Assembly (NCBI GenBank): GCA_000004985.1
Contig: GG738895.1
DNA: 64,000 nucleotides
Source: Naegleria gruberi
Lineage: Eukaryota
Strand: one strand, 5' to 3'
A program made the translations under genes and the position numbers. The notes beneath the pieces were generated by a model. That model did not search any database, was not told the DNA's origin, and worked only from the letters and a program-made list of their open reading frames with translations. This document shows, in pieces, positions 3,925-35,519 of this stretch (position 1 is the first letter of the stretch; the number at the start of each line of letters is the position of its first letter).

Positions 3925-6900
3925 TTAAATCATTAAGAACTGAACAAAGACCACTAAGCACAATACTTCAGTAACAAAATAGCTAGCATTAGCAACAGAA
4001 ACTCTATCCGATTTTCCAGGTGAACCCCTTCTTGATGGTTCTGGAATTGGTTGGGAAGTACTACTTTTTGGTTGTGGAATAGATGGTTGTGGATTAACAG
4101 GACTCTCTCCATTACAATTCATCTCATAAGCTCCAATATCTGGTGCCTTTCCATAATAAGGCATTCCAACATTAGTTCCCTTATCAATCAATGTAATGTT
4201 GCTGTCACATCTCAATCTAAAATCATTAGCCAAATAATCTTTGAAATAATTGGTGGCATTATTGTAATTATTTTCAAAAATGGTGTTTGGTCCAATAACT
4301 GGTTTCCAAATACCTTGGAAATAGCTCCCAACAATTGCAATATAATTGTAATCAGTTTCCCAATATGGAAGAAGATCAAACTTTGCACTAGAAGTTCCAA
4401 TATTCAAGTCAACCAACTGAATAGTATTGTCCAAGAAGGCATTATTCTTCATGGAAACACTTCTTGGATAGTAACTAATCATTGCCGAATCAAAAATTGC
4501 TTGGAATACCAATTCATCAAGAATGGATCTTGTCAACCCTCTTACTTCCTCAATAATTGAAAGACCAGCATTTGAATACGAGAAAGCACCTGTACTGGAG
4601 CTTAATAACCCTCTTTTTGTAACAGCAGTCCAATATGGATAAGCAAGACCATCTTGATCCAATTGAGGAAGAACATAATCTTTGTGAACTGACATGAAAT
4701 TAGTGTCATTAATCACATTGTTAATGAAATTGATAATTTCAGCCTTATCACCACTTGTTAAATCTGAAGCTGTAGAATAAGATCTAATTCTTGATACAAG
4801 AGTTTCATTTTTGGACCAAACTAATTTGTTTCCATTTTCGGTTGGGTTTACAATACTGTTAAAAAGAGTATTCCAATTTGAAGTGGTAGTACTATCTATC
4901 AAAGCACATCTGCTATTATCTGTCTTGACAGCAAATCTCAAAAATGATTGATAGAATTGATTATTATGCAGCACAACTCTAGCAGCATGATTGACACCAA
5001 CTGGACCTCCAATAAAGACATTTCGTCTGAAGATAACTAAACCATTTTGTTCCATCCACATGTTCTGATTACCAAGTTTGTTAATCAATACGTTATCTTC
5101 GAGAACAATGTTATTGATATTGGTAAATTGAATATTATCTGGATGTTGACGATATGAAGTTTGATGCTCAACTCGATTGTTTTTGATTAGAATATTCCAA
5201 TTACTATATGCCAATTGAGTTCCAGAACCAACCCAAATACCATTATTATAATTCTTGTAAATGTACATGTTCTTAATTTGTGAATCGTTCACCATACTTG
5301 CAAAGTTTACACCATTGTTGTGATTATAACTAATCTTGCCGCCATCAACATTAATATTAGTTGCATCTCTGAAACTAAATCCATTTTCACCATTTCCATA
5401 TGAAGAGCAGTTCAATAATTGAACACTATCAGTGAATTGACCAAAAAATCCCATTGAAGCATACTTTCTAAACATCATATCTTGAACAATTAAACCATCC
5501 CCGTAAACTATTGAAATGCCATTGGTCAAGGCAGATGCTTCAAGCATGACACCACTCACCTTAGGATCCTTATCAAGTGAAACTTGAATGATATTTCCTT
5601 CTGCGGTATATTGATTAGCACGAGAGAATGATCCAATATGATTGGCAATAGCATACGAATCTTTCAAGACTATTCCCATTGGAGTAGTAAGTCCTGGCGG
5701 AATGGCATTAATTCCAATAGTATTGGTAGTGGCATTGTAATAGATAATTGTTCGAGGTTGAATGGCATTTCCAAATTGATTGTAATGGTAGAAATCAGCA
5801 CCAACCCAGAAATTATCTGAAACAGGATTTCCTGCAGCATCATATTTGAACATGTCATCAACTTCCAAATAGACTATTCCATTTAAAGTGTATGAAACAT
5901 TCTTTGGAGTGAGATAATTAGTATGATCATATTCATCATCCAAATCATATGGAAGAGGTTTCATTGCCAAACTCAATTTCTCGCCATCTGCATAAATATA
6001 CGAAGTTGAAACTTGAAGTTGACCCTTATAGATGGAAATTGGTGTGGACATGACCTTTTCCAAATTTTTAGGATCAATAATTAATGAACCATCCAAAACT
6101 GCTGAATAAGTTTTGGAATTTCCAGAGGAAGGAGTTGGTGGATTCAAAGGTTTGATAGTAATTGGATGTTTGGAATGGGTTGGGCGATCAAAATAGATTG
6201 ATTCTCTATAGATACCATTTCCAACAATTAAGGTGTCATCTGGAAGTAACATGTATTGAGCTGCATTCAAAGTTGACCAAGCAGAAGATAGACCAAGACC
6301 ATCATTAGAATCGGATCCACTCAATTGATTAACATAGTAGGTCAATCCATTTCTGTTGTGCATTTGTTTACCTTGATAAACAGTAACAGATTGAGATCTC
6401 AAAGTTGCTCCTTTGGAATTTCCTGGATTTCTGTCATAAAAACCAAATTTCAAGATTTTAAACTTTTGAATAGCACTAGAATCGGTATCTGTTACAATGA
6501 CTTGATAATCATTAGCACTGGAACCCAATTTAGCCAACTGAATTGAAATTCCATTTGAAGACCATTCAGCATAAAGTTTGTAAGTGGAATAAAGCAATGG
6601 GACATGAATTAATGCTAATTTGGAGCTAGAATATAAGCGAACAGATTGACCATTCATAATTCTGGTAATGGACATGGTTGGATACAAACTAATCTTGTAA
6701 TAATTGTTTTGGTCAACCAGGAGAACAAAACCAAGATCATAGCTGGTAGATAGAAAACCAGTTTGCAAATTGCTTGAAAATGTAACACCATCAGTAGTGT
6801 CATACGGAGTGTCATAGGTGACAATCGAATCATTTTGATAAATTTGCAACAATTGACTAGCAATACCAACATTTCCTTTTTGGGTATTCCAACCAGCCAT

Positions 6901-7326
6901 GCCATTGCTAAAATTACTCTGCATCAACACCTTCAAACTATTTGGAGTAGGCAATGCAATAGATTGAATAGTAATCATGTGAGTAATGGTTATCTTTTTC
7001 CCATTCACATCATTATACGAAACGTTTCTCATCACCACAGTTTCGCCAATCGATTGTGTACTATAAACCAGAGCTGAATTATAATTATATAAACCAGTTT
7101 TCAATGGAGAACCATCTGCCATTGAATAAGCGATCTGAACTGAAGTTGAAGAATAGGAATCATTGAAATAGGTAATTCTTGGATTTAAAATTACTGAACC
7201 GAATTGATGCATGATAACTTTCTGGATGGGAGTAACGTAGAGTACATCCTGAACAGTTTGTGCATGTGTAACGGTATGAAAAACTGTCAGGAGGAGCAAA
7301 ATGACAAGTGGCAGTTTTGCTTTCAT
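3925..7326 (-). CDS. Large secreted or surface protein with a parallel beta-helix (pectin-lyase-fold-like) repeat region, a Pro/Ser-rich stalk and a hydrophobic GPI-anchor-like C-terminus
   Basis: 1133-aa uninterrupted ORF. N-terminal signal peptide MKAKLPLVILLLLTVFHTVTHA. Repeated Nxx(I/V)xxN/G-rich beta-helix-like units (e.g. NNGIWVGSGTQ, NIQFTNINNIVLEDNVLIN). Many NxS/T sites. C-terminus ...PQPKSSTSQPIPEPS...ASYFVTEVLCLVVFVQFLMI. Confidence 0.55.
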   Translation of the reverse strand: MKAKLPLVILLLLTVFHTVTHAQTVQDVLYVTPIQKVIMHQFGSVILNPRITYFNDSYSSTSVQIAYSMADGSPLKTGLYNYNSALVYSTQSIGETVVMRNVSYNDVNGKKITITHMITIQSIALPTPNSLKVLMQSNFSNGMAGWNTQKGNVGIASQLLQIYQNDSIVTYDTPYDTTDGVTFSSNLQTGFLSTSYDLGFVLLVDQNNYYKISLYPTMSITRIMNGQSVRLYSSSKLALIHVPLLYSTYKLYAEWSSNGISIQLAKLGSSANDYQVIVTDTDSSAIQKFKILKFGFYDRNPGNSKGATLRSQSVTVYQGKQMHNRNGLTYYVNQLSGSDSNDGLGLSSAWSTLNAAQYMLLPDDTLIVGNGIYRESIYFDRPTHSKHPITIKPLNPPTPSSGNSKTYSAVLDGSLIIDPKNLEKVMSTPISIYKGQLQVSTSYIYADGEKLSLAMKPLPYDLDDEYDHTNYLTPKNVSYTLNGIVYLEVDDMFKYDAAGNPVSDNFWVGADFYHYNQFGNAIQPRTIIYYNATTNTIGINAIPPGLTTPMGIVLKDSYAIANHIGSFSRANQYTAEGNIIQVSLDKDPKVSGVMLEASALTNGISIVYGDGLIVQDMMFRKYASMGFFGQFTDSVQLLNCSSYGNGENGFSFRDATNINVDGGKISYNHNNGVNFASMVNDSQIKNMYIYKNYNNGIWVGSGTQLAYSNWNILIKNNRVEHQTSYRQHPDNIQFTNINNIVLEDNVLINKLGNQNMWMEQNGLVIFRRNVFIGGPVGVNHAARVVLHNNQFYQSFLRFAVKTDNSRCALIDSTTTSNWNTLFNSIVNPTENGNKLVWSKNETLVSRIRSYSTASDLTSGDKAEIINFINNVINDTNFMSVHKDYVLPQLDQDGLAYPYWTAVTKRGLLSSSTGAFSYSNAGLSIIEEVRGLTRSILDELVFQAIFDSAMISYYPRSVSMKNNAFLDNTIQLVDLNIGTSSAKFDLLPYWETDYNYIAIVGSYFQGIWKPVIGPNTIFENNYNNATNYFKDYLANDFRLRCDSNITLIDKGTNVGMPYYGKAPDIGAYEMNCNGESPVNPQPSIPQPKSSTSQPIPEPSRRGSPGKSDRVSVANASYFVTEVLCLVVFVQFLMI

Positions 7327-7818: not shown

Positions 7819-7898
7819 GCAGGGGTTCCCGAGTGGTCAAAGGGGTAGACTCAAGTTCTACTGCGCAAGCTTCGTGGGTTCAAATCCCACCTTCTGCA
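7819..7898 (+). tRNA. tRNA-Leu (anticodon CAA) with long variable arm
   Basis: GCAGGGG acceptor stem, D-loop AGTGGTCAAA, anticodon loop CTCAAGT, long extra arm, T-loop GGTTCAAATCC. Followed by T-runs (ttttg, tttttcttt) consistent with Pol III termination. Confidence 0.85.
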
Positions 7899-10140: not shown

Positions 10141-10541
10141 TTTTTTTTAATTAAAATTATTTTATTGTTGTGATAAAAATACACCTTGTTAATTAAACTG
10201 TCTTGTGAAAATAGTGAAGTAAAGGTTCAAGTTGTTGTGAAGGTGATGATCTACGAAACACAGAAGGTATTAATCATTCCGCTTGTTTGTTATTGATGGA
10301 GTCATGTTCTTATTGTTATGTGTTTGGTCCAAACATGAGATTCTTTCAGGCTGGCATTTTTTAGCTTGGGATTTGCCTGTAAAATATTCTTATTGTAAAA
10401 GAACCCTAGACTGGGTTGGCCAAAATTTGCGAAAGTTTGTCGAAAAAAAAATACAAAAAGTAAGTTAATGCCACACCTTCGTACTTATCGTTCTCCTTTC
10501 TACTTGTTTTAAAATGATAAAATTTATTGTTACACAACTAG

Positions 10542-10922
10542 ATGTCTCTTGTTTGGGAAATTACTAAGAACAACAGCTCTTTCTTGAAGAGAACCAAGCT
10601 CTATGATGGTGCTGCATTCAACACTGCTCCAACCAACCCATTGAACATTAACTCTGAAAAGTACACCAAGACTCAAGCTGTTTCCGTTGATGTTACTCCA
10701 AAGGGTAATTTGGTTATCAAGAAGTCCACTTTGGACTGTTCCGTCAGAAAGCCAAAGGAATTCGTCAAGAAGACCAAGGTCACCAAGGGACAAAAGTCAG
10801 TCACCAACTTTGCTAGAAACATTGTTGAAGCCACCGAATCTGAAGATTTCAGAGGTGACTTGAAGGCTGTTTTGGTTGCTCGTGCTGCCAAGTTGTTGAA
10901 GAACAGAAAGGCCAGAAAGTAA
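10542..10922 (+). CDS. RPL28: 60S ribosomal protein L28e
   Basis: MSLVWEITKNNSSFLKRTKLYDG...KGN..VIKKS...RKP... Basic C-terminus RAAKLLKNRKARK. Colinear with eukaryotic L28e. Divergently oriented to RPB9 with about 400 bp between the start codons. Confidence 0.85.
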   Translation: MSLVWEITKNNSSFLKRTKLYDGAAFNTAPTNPLNINSEKYTKTQAVSVDVTPKGNLVIKKSTLDCSVRKPKEFVKKTKVTKGQKSVTNFARNIVEATESEDFRGDLKAVLVARAAKLLKNRKARK

Positions 10923-11252
10923 ATTTGCTTTTTCCAATAAAAAAACATATAAATTATAACTGTCCAACATTCAACGATGATTCAGCAGAATATTTAAGCT
11001 TATCCATTCACTTTCTATTTCGGTAATCACACGTGTTAATCAAAATAAAAAATTGATTCTCCTTCCCAGGATTTTATTCAAATTGATTGTTAATAAATAA
11101 TTAATTATTTTCAAATTGATTGATTGAAATTGTTTTTCTATTTAAATCTGCAATCCATCATAGATACATTGTTCTTTTAATAAACCATTCAAAAAAAAAT
11201 AGTCCTTCTACTTTTGATCATCCTCTACATTCGTCATAATCCTAATAGTGCC

Positions 11253-13765: not shown

Positions 13766-14560
13766 TTACAAATCTTCTAATAATATTGGATCTCTCAAAT
13801 GTTTTTGAATGAACAATTTGGTATCTCGATTTCTTGCACATCCAAAAATACAAATCTGAAGATTTAACTTTTTGGCAATTTTCACAATTTCCTCAACATG
13901 AGCTTGAAAACCATAATTTTGTACATGACTCATCTCCTCAACAATTAACATTTTCAAATATTTCACATTCAGAATATTGCTCTCTATCAAATCTAACAAT
14001 TTCACTGGCGTTCCCACAACTACATGTTGAATTTCTTGCAGAGCTAGCTCTGCAGACCGCATTTGACCTCCATATATCCCAAATACTTTGACACTCATAA
14101 ATTTCGCAAAGGATGCTATAATATGAGAGAGACTTATCGCCATTTCCCTGGTCGGTACAATCACCAATGCTTGAGGGGCACCTTTCGAATATAAATCATG
14201 ATTCAGATCAATTCTTTCAAGAAGGGCAAGTGAAAACCCAACTGTTTTACCAGTTCCAATTTTAGATGTGGACACAACATCAACTGGTGGATAGGATGAA
14301 ATAATTGGCATGATCAACTTTTTTTGCAATTCTGTCATTTCTTTTTTACCATCACTATAAAAACCAGAAAGTAAATTCGCGCGTAAATTTAAATCTTCAA
14401 AAGTTTCAATCTTTTTCATGTTGAATTTTGGTCGTGGAATTGTGATTTGTTTTTTGAAAAGTTTGATCAAGTGTGAAAATTCCGAATTTATATTCGAATT
14501 GCTGTGTATGTCTGTTAGAAGGAGGCGTGTAACACTTTCGTATGTTTCTGCTTGGTTCAT
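13766..14560 (-). CDS. Paralog of the 1612-2388 gene: eIF4A-like DEAD-box RecA1-domain-only protein with degenerate motifs
   Basis: About 55% identity to the 1612-2388 product (shared RP..FNMKK, IMPIISS, GTGK, SKGAPQALVI, PTREM, LQEIQHVVVGT, KYLK, NLQIC). Motif II is VEEM instead of DEAD and motif III is FGCA instead of SAT. No C-terminal helicase domain. ATG at 14560. Confidence 0.6.
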   Translation of the reverse strand: MNQAETYESVTRLLLTDIHSNSNINSEFSHLIKLFKKQITIPRPKFNMKKIETFEDLNLRANLLSGFYSDGKKEMTELQKKLIMPIISSYPPVDVVSTSKIGTGKTVGFSLALLERIDLNHDLYSKGAPQALVIVPTREMAISLSHIIASFAKFMSVKVFGIYGGQMRSAELALQEIQHVVVGTPVKLLDLIESNILNVKYLKMLIVEEMSHVQNYGFQAHVEEIVKIAKKLNLQICIFGCARNRDTKLFIQKHLRDPILLEDL

Positions 14561-15460: not shown

Positions 15461-17644
15461 ATGAAATCAACATCTCTATTGATATCTTTGGTTCTTTTTA
15501 TTTCCATCTGCATTTCCACACATGTCAATTGTGCATGGAACTTGCCACCACTCGGTTCTCCAAGAATACTCTTTGCAGATTCGTCCTACTTGACGAAACT
15601 AAAGTCTGACATGGCAAAGCCAACCAATTACGCCACTTCTTTCAAAAACTTTGTTAATAGTGGAATTTCTGGTGGCGGATCCGTCTATCTATTCGAAGCA
15701 TGGCACTCAGCTCTATTATTCATGGTCACAGGACAAGTTTCCTATTGTAACTATGCAGTTCAAAATATAGATTCCATTGTAGCTCAAGAAGAATCCATCA
15801 TTGCCAGTGGGAACATTCCATCCATTGCAGGAGATAGTTATCTTGATGTTGGATATGGTTTGCATAATATAATGACTGTCTATGATTGGTGTCGAGCACA
15901 AACAAGTCAATCTCAAAGAAATCGATGGACAAATTATGCCAATCAAGCAGTTTCTAATATTTGGAATTGCTCAACAGCGACATGGGGTGGTAAAGATGCT
16001 GCATGGTCATGTTGGTCGGTGGATAATCCAGGAAACAATTATTATTACTCCTTTTTGAGAGCAACCATGATGGTTGGGTTAGCCACATACGGAGAGAATG
16101 CAAGTGCTGATATGTGGTTGAGACAATTTAGAAATGTCAAGATTGGAAATCAATTAATTCCATATTTTAATGGAGAGCTCAAGACAGGTGGCAGTTTGGA
16201 AGGAACTGGGTATGGTATTTCACATAAGGAATTGTTTAATTTGTATATTTGGTGGCAATTGTCAACTGGTGAAAATATTGCTGACCTGACTTCACACACT
16301 TACAATTCGTTACAATGGATTTTGCATCAAATGGTTCCACAATTGGATGCATTGGCAAATATTGGCGATCAAGCACGTGATTCCTCTGCATCTTTCTATG
16401 ATTATCATCGTCATTACATTATTGCTCTTTGCTATTTATATCCAAAATCCAAATTAGCAAAATCAGCTAAAATTCTATTATCCAAATCGAGTGTTCCTCA
16501 AATGACAAGCGGTTTCAATACTTATATAGATTACATTTATGATATCAGTTCTATTGAAACAGTTCCACTCAATTCAACCTATATTACAACTTCATTCAGG
16601 GGAGATTCAACTGGAACTCTTGCCTTACGTTCAAGTTGGGATTCTGATGCAGTTTATGCTAATTTAGTTTGTGGACCACTTGTAGAATCTCATGCACATC
16701 AAGATCAGGGAAGTTTTATTCTATATCACAAGGGTTGGTTGGCATATGATCAGAATTTCAATAGTCATTCTGGAATTCAACAAATGAATCACTATCATAA
16801 TTTGGTTAGAATTGTTAGTGACAATGAGATTATTCTTCAATCTGGAGGATCTCCTTGTAATATGAGTGCACTTTCTGATAATTCTGTTTATTCCTATGCA
16901 CTTTCACTTGTTACTCCTCTATATGATAGTAATAATTACAATTCGAAAGGTTTAGTTACCAAAGTCGAAAGAGAATTTGTATTTATCAAACCAAGTACAT
17001 TTGTTGTTTTTGATAGAGTGGCAACAAAGACTAATTCCAAAGCTAAAAGAATACTTTCGCTTAATTTTATGGATAAACCAAGCTATTCCAATGGAAATTT
17101 GGTTTTTAATTCAAAGAGTTCCATTACTGTTAAAACTCTTTCTCCAACCTCAAATTTAAACGTTTCCATTATTGATTGGAAAACTGAAGATTCTGATAAC
17201 AATGCTGGATATAGAGTTGACTATTTGGATACTTCATCATTAGATTCCACTAACTTTTTACAAGTAATTTCAATCAACTCTTCTGTTGCCTCATCCATTA
17301 GGGATGATGTTAGTGGAAAAATAGGAGCAACAATTAGTTTGAATGATGGACGAAAGGTAACTGTTCGATTCAATACTGCCAGTACTGGTGGATCAATCGT
17401 GGTTATTTCCAATAAGCAAACAACATTGGTGAATGAGGATCTCACAACCAGTAAGCAAGCTCTTGGTGTGGGAGAGGTAATAGTTCCACTTTCATCACCT
17501 AAACCTGTTCCAATTTCTTCTGTGCAACCAGGTCAAAAATCAAGCAAAGCATTTACATCAACAAGAGTTAATTCTAGTCGGCCATCTCAAATGAGTAGTT
17601 TGTTCTTCATTATTGTAATAATTGGTTTCATTTTAATAAATTAA
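15461..17644 (+). CDS. Secreted polysaccharide-lyase-like protein (alginate lyase / heparinase II/III-like fold) with a Ser-rich stalk and a GPI-anchor-like hydrophobic C-terminus
   Basis: Signal peptide MKSTSLLISLVLFISICISTHVNC. The C-terminal half carries ESHAHQDQGSFILYHKGWLAYDQNF, which matches the H-x-H-x-D-x-GSF signature of the heparinase II/III-like domain. Intronless 727 aa. C-terminus SSRPSQMSSLFFIIVIIGFILIN. Confidence 0.5.
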   Translation: MKSTSLLISLVLFISICISTHVNCAWNLPPLGSPRILFADSSYLTKLKSDMAKPTNYATSFKNFVNSGISGGGSVYLFEAWHSALLFMVTGQVSYCNYAVQNIDSIVAQEESIIASGNIPSIAGDSYLDVGYGLHNIMTVYDWCRAQTSQSQRNRWTNYANQAVSNIWNCSTATWGGKDAAWSCWSVDNPGNNYYYSFLRATMMVGLATYGENASADMWLRQFRNVKIGNQLIPYFNGELKTGGSLEGTGYGISHKELFNLYIWWQLSTGENIADLTSHTYNSLQWILHQMVPQLDALANIGDQARDSSASFYDYHRHYIIALCYLYPKSKLAKSAKILLSKSSVPQMTSGFNTYIDYIYDISSIETVPLNSTYITTSFRGDSTGTLALRSSWDSDAVYANLVCGPLVESHAHQDQGSFILYHKGWLAYDQNFNSHSGIQQMNHYHNLVRIVSDNEIILQSGGSPCNMSALSDNSVYSYALSLVTPLYDSNNYNSKGLVTKVEREFVFIKPSTFVVFDRVATKTNSKAKRILSLNFMDKPSYSNGNLVFNSKSSITVKTLSPTSNLNVSIIDWKTEDSDNNAGYRVDYLDTSSLDSTNFLQVISINSSVASSIRDDVSGKIGATISLNDGRKVTVRFNTASTGGSIVVISNKQTTLVNEDLTTSKQALGVGEVIVPLSSPKPVPISSVQPGQKSSKAFTSTRVNSSRPSQMSSLFFIIVIIGFILIN

Positions 17645-20313: not shown

Positions 20314-20386
20314 TCCCCCTTAGCTCAGTCGGTAGAGCGTCAGACTGTTAATCTGCAGGTCGGTGGTTCGAGCCCACCAGGGGGAG
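20314..20386 (+). tRNA. tRNA-Asn (anticodon GTT)
   Basis: Acceptor TCCCCCT/AGGGGGA, D-arm GCTCAGTCGGTAGAGC, anticodon loop CTGTTAA, T-arm GGTGGTTCGAGCCCACC. Followed by TTTTTT at 20391-20396. Confidence 0.85.
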
Positions 20387-25322: not shown

Positions 25323-25395
25323 GCCCGTCTAGCTCAGTCGGTAGAGCGCAAGGCTCTTAACCTTGTGGTCGTGGGTTCGACCCCCACGGTGGGCG
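25323..25395 (+). tRNA. tRNA-Lys (anticodon CTT)
   Basis: Acceptor GCCCGTC/GGTGGGC, D-arm AGCTCAGTCGGTAGAGC, anticodon loop CTCTTAA, T-arm GTGGGTTCGACCCCCAC. Followed by TTT..TTTT. Confidence 0.85.
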
Positions 25396-25695: not shown

Positions 25696-27141
25696 ATGTT
25701 CTCGAGAACAAGGGTTATTTTCAAAATAATAATAATAATAATAATTAATGAATTGCTAATAGAGAATATTATATTTTCGGATGATGTTTGTTTTGAAATT
25801 ATTTCCATGATTGATGATTCGTGGTTTATTTTGAATAATTGTTCTTTAATTTCAAAACAATGGTTTAATGTGATCAAGGATCGTTCAAAACTTGTTATTC
25901 AATTTAAAAAAAAATTAACAGAAAAAAGAGTTGAATTATTAATGAAAAGTCAATTCATGAACAGTATTGTAAATGTTAAGTTTTCTTTTGGGTTGCTTAA
26001 CTCTTCAGATAAACTTAAATTCATAAGTGAAATGAAACATTTAACATCACTTGATATTGCTGACAATCAAATTGGTGATGAGGGATCTAAATTCATAAGT
26101 GGAATGAAACATTTAACATCACTTAATATAGATCGCAATCAAATTGGTGTAGAAGGAGCCAAACTCATAAGTGGAATGAAATCATTAATATCACTTAGTA
26201 TTGGTGATAATCAAATTGGTGTAGAAGGAGCCAAACTCATAAGTGGAATGAAACATTTAACATCACTTGATATAAATCGCAATCAAATTGGTGTAGAAGG
26301 AGCCAAATCAATAAGTAGAATGAAACAATTAACATCACTTAATATATATTACAATCAAATTGGTGCTGAGGGAGCCAAATCAATAAGTGGAATGAAACAA
26401 TTAACATCACTTGATATTGGTGGAAATCAAATTGGTGTAGAAGAATCCAAATACATAAGTGAAATGAAACAATTAACATCACTTGATATATATAACAATC
26501 AAATTGGTGTAGAAGGAGCCAAATCAATAAGTGGAATGAAACAATTAACATCACTTAATATTGGTTTCAATCGAATTGGTGTAGAAGGATCCAAACTCAT
26601 AAGTGAAATGAAACAATTAACATCACTTAATATTGGTTCCAATGAAATTGGTGTAGAAGGGTCCAAATTCATACCTGAAATGAAACATTTAACATCACTT
26701 AATATATATTACAATGAAATTGGTGATGAAGGATCCAAATACATAAGTGAAATGAAACAATTAACATCACTTGATATATATTACAATGAAATTGGTGTGG
26801 AAGGAGCCAAATACATAAGTGAAATGAAACAATTAACATCACTTGGTATTAGTGATAATCAAATTGGTGTAGAAGGAGCCAAATTCATAAGTGAAATGAA
26901 ATTATTAACATCACTTGATATTGCTGACAATCAAATTGGTGATGAGGGATCTAAATTCATAAGTGAAATGAAATCATTAACATCGCTTAATGTTAATTCC
27001 AATCAAATTGGTGATGAGGGAGCCAAACTTATAAGTGGAATGAAACAATTAACATCACTTAAAATATATTACAATCAAATTGGTGAAACTTTATTAATGT
27101 CTGTTATATCAATAACAGCTGAGACCAAATCTTTAGACTAA
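25696..27141 (+). CDS. F-box / RNI-type LRR protein composed of about 15 tandem 24-aa repeats (LTSLDIxxNQIGVEGAKxISxMKQ)
   Basis: ATG at 25696. N-terminal F-box-like FSDDVCFEIISMIDDSWFILNNCSLISKQWFNVI. The remainder is a perfectly periodic 24-aa LRR array; adjacent units are nearly identical at the nucleotide level. Confidence 0.65.
   Translation: MFSRTRVIFKIIIIIIINELLIENIIFSDDVCFEIISMIDDSWFILNNCSLISKQWFNVIKDRSKLVIQFKKKLTEKRVELLMKSQFMNSIVNVKFSFGLLNSSDKLKFISEMKHLTSLDIADNQIGDEGSKFISGMKHLTSLNIDRNQIGVEGAKLISGMKSLISLSIGDNQIGVEGAKLISGMKHLTSLDINRNQIGVEGAKSISRMKQLTSLNIYYNQIGAEGAKSISGMKQLTSLDIGGNQIGVEESKYISEMKQLTSLDIYNNQIGVEGAKSISGMKQLTSLNIGFNRIGVEGSKLISEMKQLTSLNIGSNEIGVEGSKFIPEMKHLTSLNIYYNEIGDEGSKYISEMKQLTSLDIYYNEIGVEGAKYISEMKQLTSLGISDNQIGVEGAKFISEMKLLTSLDIADNQIGDEGSKFISEMKSLTSLNVNSNQIGDEGAKLISGMKQLTSLKIYYNQIGETLLMSVISITAETKSLD
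26030..27090 (+). repeat. Tandem array of about 15 copies of a 72-bp unit (coding LRR repeats), near-identical at the DNA level
   Basis: Unit ...aatgaaacaattaacatcacttgatat(a/t)..aatcaaattggtgtagaaggagccaaa(t/c)(c/t)(a/c)ataagtg(g/a)... repeated head-to-tail. Only a few substitutions per unit. Confidence 0.75.
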
Positions 27142-35448: not shown

Positions 35449-35519
35449 CTCGAGTGCCGGGAATTGAACCCGGGTCGCCAGAGTGACAGTCTGGAATGCT
35501 ACCACTATACCACACCCGA
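35449..35519 (-). tRNA. tRNA-Asp (anticodon GTC)
   Basis: Reverse complement reads TCGGGTGTGGTATAGTGGTAGCATTCCAGACTGTCACTCTGGCGACCCGGGTTCAATTCCCGGCACTCGAG. Acceptor pairs, anticodon loop CTGTCAC. T-run (AATTTTG) downstream on the minus strand. Confidence 0.85.

Follow-up and report, generated by a model that had tools for sequence, protein, structure and literature searches.

A heparinase II-related gene of probable bacterial origin in the amoeboflagellate Naegleria gruberi

Heparinase II (HepII, or HepB) of Pedobacter heparinus is a member of polysaccharide lyase (PL) family 21 and has the architecture of the heparinase II/III-like superfamily, a toroid followed by an antiparallel β-sandwich. 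The roles of its residues, which we take to be established by the literature on structures 2fuq and 3e7j, are catalytic for His202, Tyr257 and His406 and zinc-binding for His408, Asp425 and His451. His202 is a second base that enables HepII to act on both uronate epimers. Lateral gene transfer (LGT) of carbohydrate-active enzymes (CAZymes), lyases included, has been described in the discobid Diplonema papillatum (PMC10161547), and for about 2.7% of Naegleria gruberi genes homology to bacterial genes has been reported (PMC9928731, section 28). N. gruberi is a heterolobosean amoeboflagellate with a 41 Mb genome of 33% GC (PMC8040595). A stretch of 64,000 nucleotides from its contig GG738895.1 (assembly GCA_000004985.1), hereafter the window, contains a gene, NAEGRDRAFT_72148, whose product is a remote relative of HepII. 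We propose, with a probability of roughly 0.6, that Naegleria domesticated a bacterial gene and uses its product as a surface-tethered uronate polysaccharide lyase for grazing. A literature search found no paper on this gene, on its bacterial family or on heparinase-like genes in amoebae.

The gene is a single uninterrupted open reading frame (ORF) of 727 codons from ATG to TAA, which confirms the lyase-like ORF noticed in an earlier, sequence-only reading of the window. Its translation is 100% identical to the N. gruberi 'predicted protein' EFC40010.1 (XP_002672754.1, UniProt D2VT24), whose gene lies on a scaffold of 333,733 bp. The features below are given with window positions, strand, amino acid (aa) range and supporting evidence; pLDDT is the predicted local distance difference test score of the AlphaFold2 model.

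15461..17644, + strand: complete single-exon coding sequence NAEGRDRAFT_72148, 727 aa plus stop (ORF call, database identity)
15461..15535, + strand: predicted signal peptide MKSTSLLISLVLFISICISTHVNCA, aa 1-25 (hydropathy, low pLDDT, N-terminal to the bacterial homology, which starts at about aa 27)
15536..16555, + strand: predicted (α/α) toroid domain, aa ~26-365 (16 helices in the model, alignment to HepII 41-356, fold matches)
16019..16054, + strand: family-specific insertion VDNPGNNYYYSF, aa 187-198 (family alignment, hhalign)
16211..16213, + strand: codon for Tyr251, equivalent to HepII Tyr257 (invariant in the family alignment, hhalign)
16556..17455, + strand: predicted β-sandwich domains, aa ~366-665 (model, Foldseek, hhalign)
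16691..16717, + strand: HAHQDQGSF motif, aa 411-419, with His411 equivalent to HepII His406 and His413 to HepII His408 (alignments)
16748..16750, + strand: codon for Asp430, equivalent to the HepII zinc ligand Asp425 (invariant, hhalign)
16796..16798, + strand: codon for His446, equivalent to the HepII zinc ligand His451 (invariant, hhalign)
17486..17596, + strand: Ser/Pro/Thr-rich disordered stalk, aa 676-712, Naegleria-specific (composition, model, counterpart in N. lovaniensis)
17597..17641, + strand: C-terminal hydrophobic tail SLFFIIVIIGFILIN, aa 713-727 (hydropathy, equivalent in N. lovaniensis, none in bacterial homologues)

Relationship to heparinase II and the predicted active site

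The sequence-only reading had placed the protein in the heparinase II/III family by an H-x-H-x-D-x-GSF motif. The motif is present as HAHQDQGSF and is not a chance occurrence, being conserved in an alignment of 56 homologues. H411, D415, G417 and S418 do not vary, conservation of H413 and F419 is at least 90%, and the segment aligns residue by residue with HepII 406-HQHQDAGAF. Searches with single sequences did not place the protein in a described family. Pfam PF07940 (Hepar_II_III_C) scored 19.5 bits against a gathering threshold of 24 and covered aa 379-425 only. It was matched weakly in 28/56 family members (best E=2.8e-5), and none of the 56 reached any Pfam threshold. PF05426 (Alginate_lyase), the other family suggested at the outset, had no match to the Naegleria protein at E≤1 and matched 9/56 homologues weakly (best E=3e-4). 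The NCBIfam HepB equivalog model scored 24 bits against a cut-off of 600. The proposed kinship with the heparinase II/III group was therefore sub-threshold by single sequence but significant by profile, hhalign and Foldseek.

A phmmer search of the PDB with the single sequence found HepII at E=3e-5. When a profile was built from the 56-sequence alignment, hmmsearch matched HepII in three colinear stretches at E=1.1e-18, and no PDB chain was nearer. The same profile matched the glycosaminoglycan (GAG) lyase GAGase II (8khv, 1e-10; 8khw, 2e-8), heparinase III (4e-6) and the oligoalginate lyase Atu3025 (8e-4). A protein-database search with a 106-aa HepII fragment yielded fragments of 83-177 aa only; in its place metagenome contigs were scanned, from which 18 full-length PL21 orthologues were recovered. 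HepII positions H202, Y257, H406, H408, D425 and H451 were confirmed on a 772-aa PL21 ORF 98% identical to the HepII fragment. Global hhalign of a larger alignment of 194 family sequences against the 18 PL21 sequences gave a probability of 99.9 and E=3.3e-34 over 573 columns, spanning HepII 41-738.

The structure was modelled with AlphaFold2 on the 56-sequence alignment (mean pLDDT 85.8, predicted template modelling score 0.84). The model has a helical N-terminal half (aa 41-359), a β C-terminal half (aa 378-661) and disordered ends (aa 1-22 and 672-727), reproducing the toroid and antiparallel β-sandwich of the superfamily. The strongest Foldseek matches in the PDB were as follows.

PL15 Atu3025: E=5e-23, TM 0.67
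PL15 exoHep: E=7e-23
PL21 HepII: E=1e-21
PL39 Dp0100: E=5e-21
GAGase II (8khv): E=7e-20
Human dermatan-sulfate (DS) epimerase 1 (DSE, 6hzn): E=7e-19
PL17, PL33 and PL12: E=5e-18 to 1e-14

PL35 was also among the matches. All 37 PDB matches with E≤1.4e-14 have the toroid plus β-sandwich lyase fold; structural matches shared 11-16% identity with the query at TM 0.5-0.7. At the level of predicted fold, membership of the heparinase II/III-like lyase superfamily is established, and the protein is best described as a remote relative of HepII. The same comparisons place it outside PL21 and PL12 proper, in a separate uncharacterised family without HepII His202. No Pfam or NCBIfam model covers this family and no characterised member was found; bacterial members, where the source gives a name, are labelled 'hypothetical protein'.

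Residue equivalences were assigned from hhalign against PL21 together with conservation among the 56 sequences, N. gruberi numbering being domain numbering plus 25.

Tyr251 (in EGTGYG): invariant, equivalent to HepII catalytic Tyr257
His411: invariant, equivalent to HepII His406
His413: at least 90% conserved, equivalent to HepII zinc ligand His408
Asp430: invariant, equivalent to HepII zinc ligand Asp425
His446: invariant, equivalent to HepII zinc ligand His451
Lys178: variable column, equivalent to HepII His202

Directly after the His202-equivalent site, the insertion VDNPGNNYYYSF is nearly invariant in the family and has no counterpart in HepII. The N. lovaniensis copy retains the same active-site residues. 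Since Tyr251, His411 and a putative structural zinc site (His413/Asp430/His446) are conserved within a lyase fold, β-elimination is the likeliest activity. Because the second base of HepII is missing, Tyr251 would have to serve as both base and acid, and the HepII mechanism is not transferable wholesale. In our reading the cleft is catalytically competent and would use a single-tyrosine variant of the mechanism, as in the single-epimer lyases of this fold.

The same fold might instead support another chemistry, and the protein could be a uronate C5-epimerase, a hydrolase or a surface protein that binds glycans without catalysis. The structural match to DS-epimerase 1 is strong, one of the three catalytic residues of HepII is not conserved, and lyase activity in the family rests on prediction. 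In addition, several bacterial copies lie in exopolysaccharide (EPS) biosynthesis clusters, where modifying enzymes are common. However, a two-base epimerase mechanism uses the His that is missing here; the catalytic trio of DS-epimerase we take to be His205/Tyr261/His450. Conservation of Tyr251, His411 and the zinc site throughout the family argues against a non-catalytic role, and 37/39 Foldseek matches at E≤2e-6 are lyases, the exception being DS-epimerase. We consider a different chemistry unlikely and favor a lyase.

Bacterial relatives and integration into the Naegleria genome

Database searches returned more than 1000 hits, and names are known for the best 120. Among these 120 Naegleria is the sole eukaryotic genus, and all other named relatives are bacterial, with 43-50% identity over about 88% of the length and E values down to 1e-208. 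The family comprises about 1000 clusters at 50% identity, 250 of them with E<1e-30. A scan of one genome per species found relatives in 307 bacterial species from at least five phyla. The carriers are mainly Burkholderiales (Rhizobacter, Ideonella, Aquabacterium, Piscinibacter, Rhodoferax), Sphingomonadales, Myxococcota and Anaerolineales, many of them from freshwater, groundwater, soil or activated sludge, which is the habitat of Naegleria itself. The top hit (P0002) is encoded on a contig of 66% GC within a bacterial EPS cluster.

Neighbour-joining trees were built from Kimura distances over 628-635 columns. The N. gruberi and N. lovaniensis proteins, which are 58% identical, form one clade with a bootstrap of 100. 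In these trees the clade lies inside the bacterial relatives and is not nested in vertically inherited eukaryotic sequences. Its sister is a sequence from a Hainich groundwater metagenome (P0003; bootstrap 97-99), the nearest non-Naegleria relative at 53% identity. The 2 kb contig that encodes the sister (1-2018; GC 0.56, third-position GC (GC3) 0.67) is bacterial-like in style. Because the reading frame leaves the contig at its 5' end through an Ala-Pro linker (PAPAPAPA), this donor-like protein is probably multi-domain. AT-rich, possibly eukaryotic family members were screened for by composition, and none with eukaryote-type termini was found; one of them (P0097) is on a compact bacterial-style contig. 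Horizontal acquisition, which the sequence-only reading had put forward, is supported by the position of the Naegleria clade among bacterial sequences together with the integration of the gene into its host genome. These results indicate an old transfer from a bacterium to Naegleria, apparently before the split of N. gruberi and N. lovaniensis.

Two features of the family concern the bacteria alone. The bacterial gene tree conflicts with taxonomy, grouping Anaeromyxobacteraceae with Rhizobacter and Acidobacteriota with Burkholderiales, which suggests that the family is frequently transferred among bacteria too. Several bacterial genomes carry two or three paralogues, for example on three contigs of Aquabacterium F1F2.bin.134 and as two copies 11 kb apart in Pseudomonadota ADI_H2L1.

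An ancient eukaryotic gene that was inherited vertically and lost nearly everywhere, or a transfer from eukaryotes to bacteria, would agree with the poor support of the deep tree nodes. Names are confined to the best 120 hits, and lower-ranking eukaryotic homologues might be missed. Against either scenario stand the 307 bacterial species, at least five phyla and about 1000 clusters set beside one eukaryotic genus. Furthermore, the Naegleria clade consists of one pair of tips, its sister is bacterial-like and well supported, and the eukaryote-type C-terminal extension occurs in no other family member examined. Both scenarios are very improbable, and transfer from a bacterium is preferred.

The gene lies in the middle of its scaffold, flanked by genes for an F-box/Ras protein, an S49 peptidase, a DEAD-box protein and a leucine-rich repeat protein and by several tRNA genes. 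The window has about 33% GC throughout, from which the lyase-like ORF is not distinct (GC 0.355, GC3 0.25), whereas bacterial homologue loci have GC contents of 0.56-0.74. When relative synonymous codon usage (RSCU) is compared with that of 13 neighbouring ORFs, the correlation is r=0.94, the highest value of the set, and the amino acid composition is the most AT-driven of 294 family members retrieved. The comparison of codon usage and GC that had been suggested as a check thus revealed no foreign signal. Since the gene is compositionally the same as its neighbours, deviation in GC or codon usage was dropped as an indicator of horizontal transfer. The host-like composition implies long residence and full amelioration. 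The lack of introns had also been offered as a foreign trait. The ORF is indeed uninterrupted, but so are at least six others of 480-1133 aa within the first 32 kb, which makes the argument weak.

The orthologue in N. lovaniensis is on an 835-kb contig (PYSW02000003.1; locus L004, 9300-11953). It contains two introns, at 10163-10369 and 10809-10961 of that locus, which have the form GTATGT...AG and are full of stop codons. Splicing both out yields exactly the annotated 530-aa protein, and N. gruberi has neither intron. Apart from the gene itself and a tRNA-Asp gene, the N. gruberi and N. lovaniensis loci share no synteny, in line with the low synteny reported for the genus (PMC8040595).

Bacterial contamination or mis-assembly would be expected to give an ORF without introns and nearest non-Naegleria relatives that are all bacterial, as is the case among the best 120 named hits. 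It would not be expected to place the gene mid-scaffold with eukaryotic-type genes and tRNA genes on both sides, nor to give it the GC, GC3 and codon usage of its neighbours when bacterial loci are so much richer in GC. Identity to any bacterial protein is only 43-53%, and the orthologue with two spliceosomal introns comes from an independent assembly. This explanation is extremely improbable, and the gene is treated here as a resident of the nuclear genome.

Proposed surface display and function

A eukaryotic signal peptide, a Ser-rich stalk and a hydrophobic tail resembling a glycosylphosphatidylinositol (GPI) signal had been noted in the sequence-only reading. Judged by sequence features, all three are present and all are additions in Naegleria relative to the bacterial homologues. 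Strong hydrophobicity is confined to two stretches of the protein, aa 4-20 and aa 711-727. The putative signal peptide combines a basic n-region with a hydrophobic core of 15 residues, and small residues precede Ala25/Trp26; mean hydropathy is 2.6 for aa 5-19. The pLDDT is below 50 for aa 1-22, and alignments to bacterial proteins begin at aa 27-34. Bacterial homologues have Sec signal peptides of their own or lipoprotein lipoboxes (e.g. ...LAACGGG).

At the other end the bacterial homologues terminate at a conserved ...ALPTTVQxPPxxAN, near aa 675. The Naegleria protein continues for 52 residues with a disordered stalk, which is 51% Ser+Thr+Pro compared with 24% in the whole protein, and the hydrophobic tail. 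The 15-residue tail (hydropathy 2.83) ends at the stop codon and is preceded by ...VNSSRPSQMS, with the small residues NSS..SS. N. lovaniensis has the same arrangement of stalk and tail in a divergent sequence. By inspection, this is the layout of a GPI signal: small residues for the omega site, a short polar spacer and a terminal hydrophobic stretch. The tail most likely directs GPI anchoring, and evidence for GPI-anchored proteins in Naegleria is mentioned in a pangenome paper (PMC9928731, section 39).

Taken together, these features suggest the following course of events. A bacterial gene, whose product was a secreted enzyme or lipoprotein remotely related to HepII, reached the Naegleria nuclear genome before the lineages of N. 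gruberi and N. lovaniensis separated. It has since become an ordinary gene of its host and has acquired host codon usage, a eukaryotic signal peptide, a Ser/Pro-rich stalk and a C-terminal hydrophobic signal, as well as two introns in N. lovaniensis. The enzyme would be attached to the outside of the plasma membrane, and hence also be present on the phagosome membrane. There it would cleave a uronic acid-containing polysaccharide by β-elimination, with Tyr251 as base and acid, and so depolymerize acidic bacterial capsule or biofilm polysaccharide during grazing. Homology, fold, conserved residues, bacterial ancestry, integration into the host genome and the added termini are shown by the analysis; that the protein is a lyase for this class of substrate, is GPI-anchored and serves feeding is inferred.

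The genomic context of the bacterial genes was examined for links to polysaccharides. At 3/8 loci with gene tables the gene is in or beside an EPS biosynthesis cluster, with Poly_export, Bac_transf, Polysacc_synt, GNVR, GT4, Polysacc_deac_1 or PEP-CTERM genes; the other loci were uninformative. A conserved operon was sought among the four nearest ORFs at 40 further genome loci, and no recurrent family was found, Polysacc_deac_1 being seen in 3/74 ORFs and PEP-CTERM in 2/74. The bacterial gene is stand-alone, and its context gives modest support for a role with polysaccharides.

Surface tethering would equally suit an enzyme that acts on the glycans of Naegleria itself, in glycocalyx turnover or in remodelling of the cyst wall or during the flagellate transition, and the sequence does not specify a substrate. 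No uronic acid polymer is known to us from Naegleria, though, which speaks against a self-directed role. The bacterial donors, moreover, produce EPS and share the freshwater, soil and sludge habitats of Naegleria, as would suit an enzyme directed at prey. The N. lovaniensis copy, described below, seems to be decaying, and a function that can be lost and depends on the niche would explain this better than one central to cell biology. A self-directed role is on balance improbable, and a bacterial polysaccharide is the preferred substrate.

Several observations weigh against the proposal as a whole. Activity is predicted from homology. HepII His202 aligns with a variable Lys in a gapped, lower-confidence part of the alignment; DS-epimerase 1 is among the strong structural matches; and the search for a bacterial operon was negative. 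Tree nodes below the level of the sister have bootstraps of 15-54%, so the donor lineage cannot be named. A tail-anchored membrane topology, with no cytoplasmic domain, would fit the same C-terminal sequence.

The N. lovaniensis copy raises a further difficulty. In its 5' third a signal peptide-like segment, the WNLPPLGSPRIIF segment and the remainder of the gene are in three different frames. This region has two frameshifts and a deletion of about 25 codons, and the codon for Trp156 is an in-frame TGA. The locus is annotated as two genes of 109 aa and 530 aa, and the 530-aa product begins at Met203. Since the assembly is from PacBio RSII data (PMC8040595), the indels may be errors. The change of TGG to TGA is less easily dismissed. 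The copy may be a decaying pseudogene or may reflect assembly errors, and selection on the gene is perhaps not genus-wide. No N. fowleri orthologue was found among the best 120 named hits, and the thermophilic lineage may be able to do without the gene.

A more specific reading is tentative, and we hold it to be doubtful in its full form. The Naegleria protein and the approximately 1000 bacterial clusters might constitute a PL family outside CAZy, with a variant active site characterized by a single Tyr base, an invariant NNYYY insertion and the lack of His202. The family would act on a bacterial exopolysaccharide that known lyases do not attack, and Naegleria would display its member through GPI as a grazing enzyme. 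If true, this would be an unusual example of a protist that carries a polysaccharide lyase on its surface by a lipid anchor.

Neighbouring features and comparison with known systems

Another gene in the window has a layout like that of the lyase-like gene and lies 8 kb away. This uninterrupted 1133-aa ORF (3925-7326, - strand) has a signal peptide MKAKLPLVILLLLTVFHTVTHA, a right-handed β-helix region, a Pro/Ser-rich stalk and a hydrophobic C-terminal tail (...VLCLVVFVQFLMI*). Pfam Beta_helix scored 21 bits, which is sub-threshold. Its strong homologues are two N. gruberi paralogues only (46% and 41% identity), beside one weak match to a β-helix protein, and the exact protein was not found in the protein database. 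By these features it may be a second surface-anchored glycan-active protein. Five tRNA genes were located in the window.

7819-7898: tRNA-Leu-CAA
13360-13430: tRNA-Gly-GCC, 2 kb upstream of the lyase-like gene
20314-20386: tRNA-Asn-GTT
25323-25395: tRNA-Lys-CTT
35449-35519: tRNA-Asp-GTC, besides the lyase-like gene the sole sequence common to the N. lovaniensis locus

A 264-aa ORF (13766-14560, - strand) has a DEAD-box domain, yet the same ORF contains no helicase C-terminal domain. Over the next 530 bp downstream there is a tRNA-Gly gene and no obvious second exon, and the ORF may be a truncated or split helicase gene. A 481-aa ORF (25696-27141, + strand) has unusual codon usage, with an RSCU correlation of r=0.48 compared with 0.76-0.94 in other ORFs and a GC3 of 0.18. 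Low complexity, repeats or a non-coding ORF could account for this.

HepII is the closest described system. The Naegleria protein has the same three-part architecture, colinear over the 573 aligned columns, and keeps the HepII residues Tyr257, His406 and His408/Asp425/His451 as Y251, H411, H413, D430 and H446. It differs in sharing about 16-21% identity, in being about 100 residues shorter, and in having a variable Lys for His202 followed by the invariant 12-residue insertion VDNPGNNYYYSF. Unlike HepII, it is encoded by a eukaryote and has a eukaryotic signal peptide, a stalk and a hydrophobic tail, and the Pfam and NCBIfam models for HepII are far below threshold.

The best structural matches share the fold: PL15 Atu3025 (3a0o) and exoHep (6lja), PL39 Dp0100, PL17 Alg17c, PL12 HepIII and the PL35/PL33 GAG lyases. 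With 11-16% identity and weak profile matches, they are likened to the Naegleria protein by fold and not by catalytic residues. Human DS-epimerase 1 is likewise a eukaryotic protein with a lyase-derived fold. In contrast, it has 11% identity, belongs to the animal lineage and has epimerase chemistry; there is no sign of a specific relationship, and the Naegleria protein is nearest to bacteria.

The family itself merits attention, since it points to a large group of bacterial HepII relatives, common in freshwater and sludge Burkholderiales, Sphingomonadales and Myxococcota, for which no domain model, solved structure or characterised member was found. If the substrate is a biofilm exopolysaccharide, the enzyme would be relevant to biofilm grazing by protists and possibly useful as a biofilm-degrading reagent. 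In N. gruberi and its sister species a full set of eukaryotic retrofits is visible: signal peptide, stalk, anchor signal, intron gain in the sister species and complete codon amelioration.

The acquisition most resembles the CAZyme LGT of Diplonema. In both, a discobid that feeds on bacteria or by osmotrophy has fixed a bacterial polysaccharide-degrading gene, here a predicted one, in its nuclear genome, and the gene has taken on a host-type structure. The Naegleria gene differs in that a C-terminal signal of the lipid-anchor type has been added and that the family is uncharacterised even in bacteria. Since CAZyme LGT into protists is already established, the Naegleria gene is a clear example, though not the first, of a grazing protist that has taken over a bacterial tool for degrading sugars.

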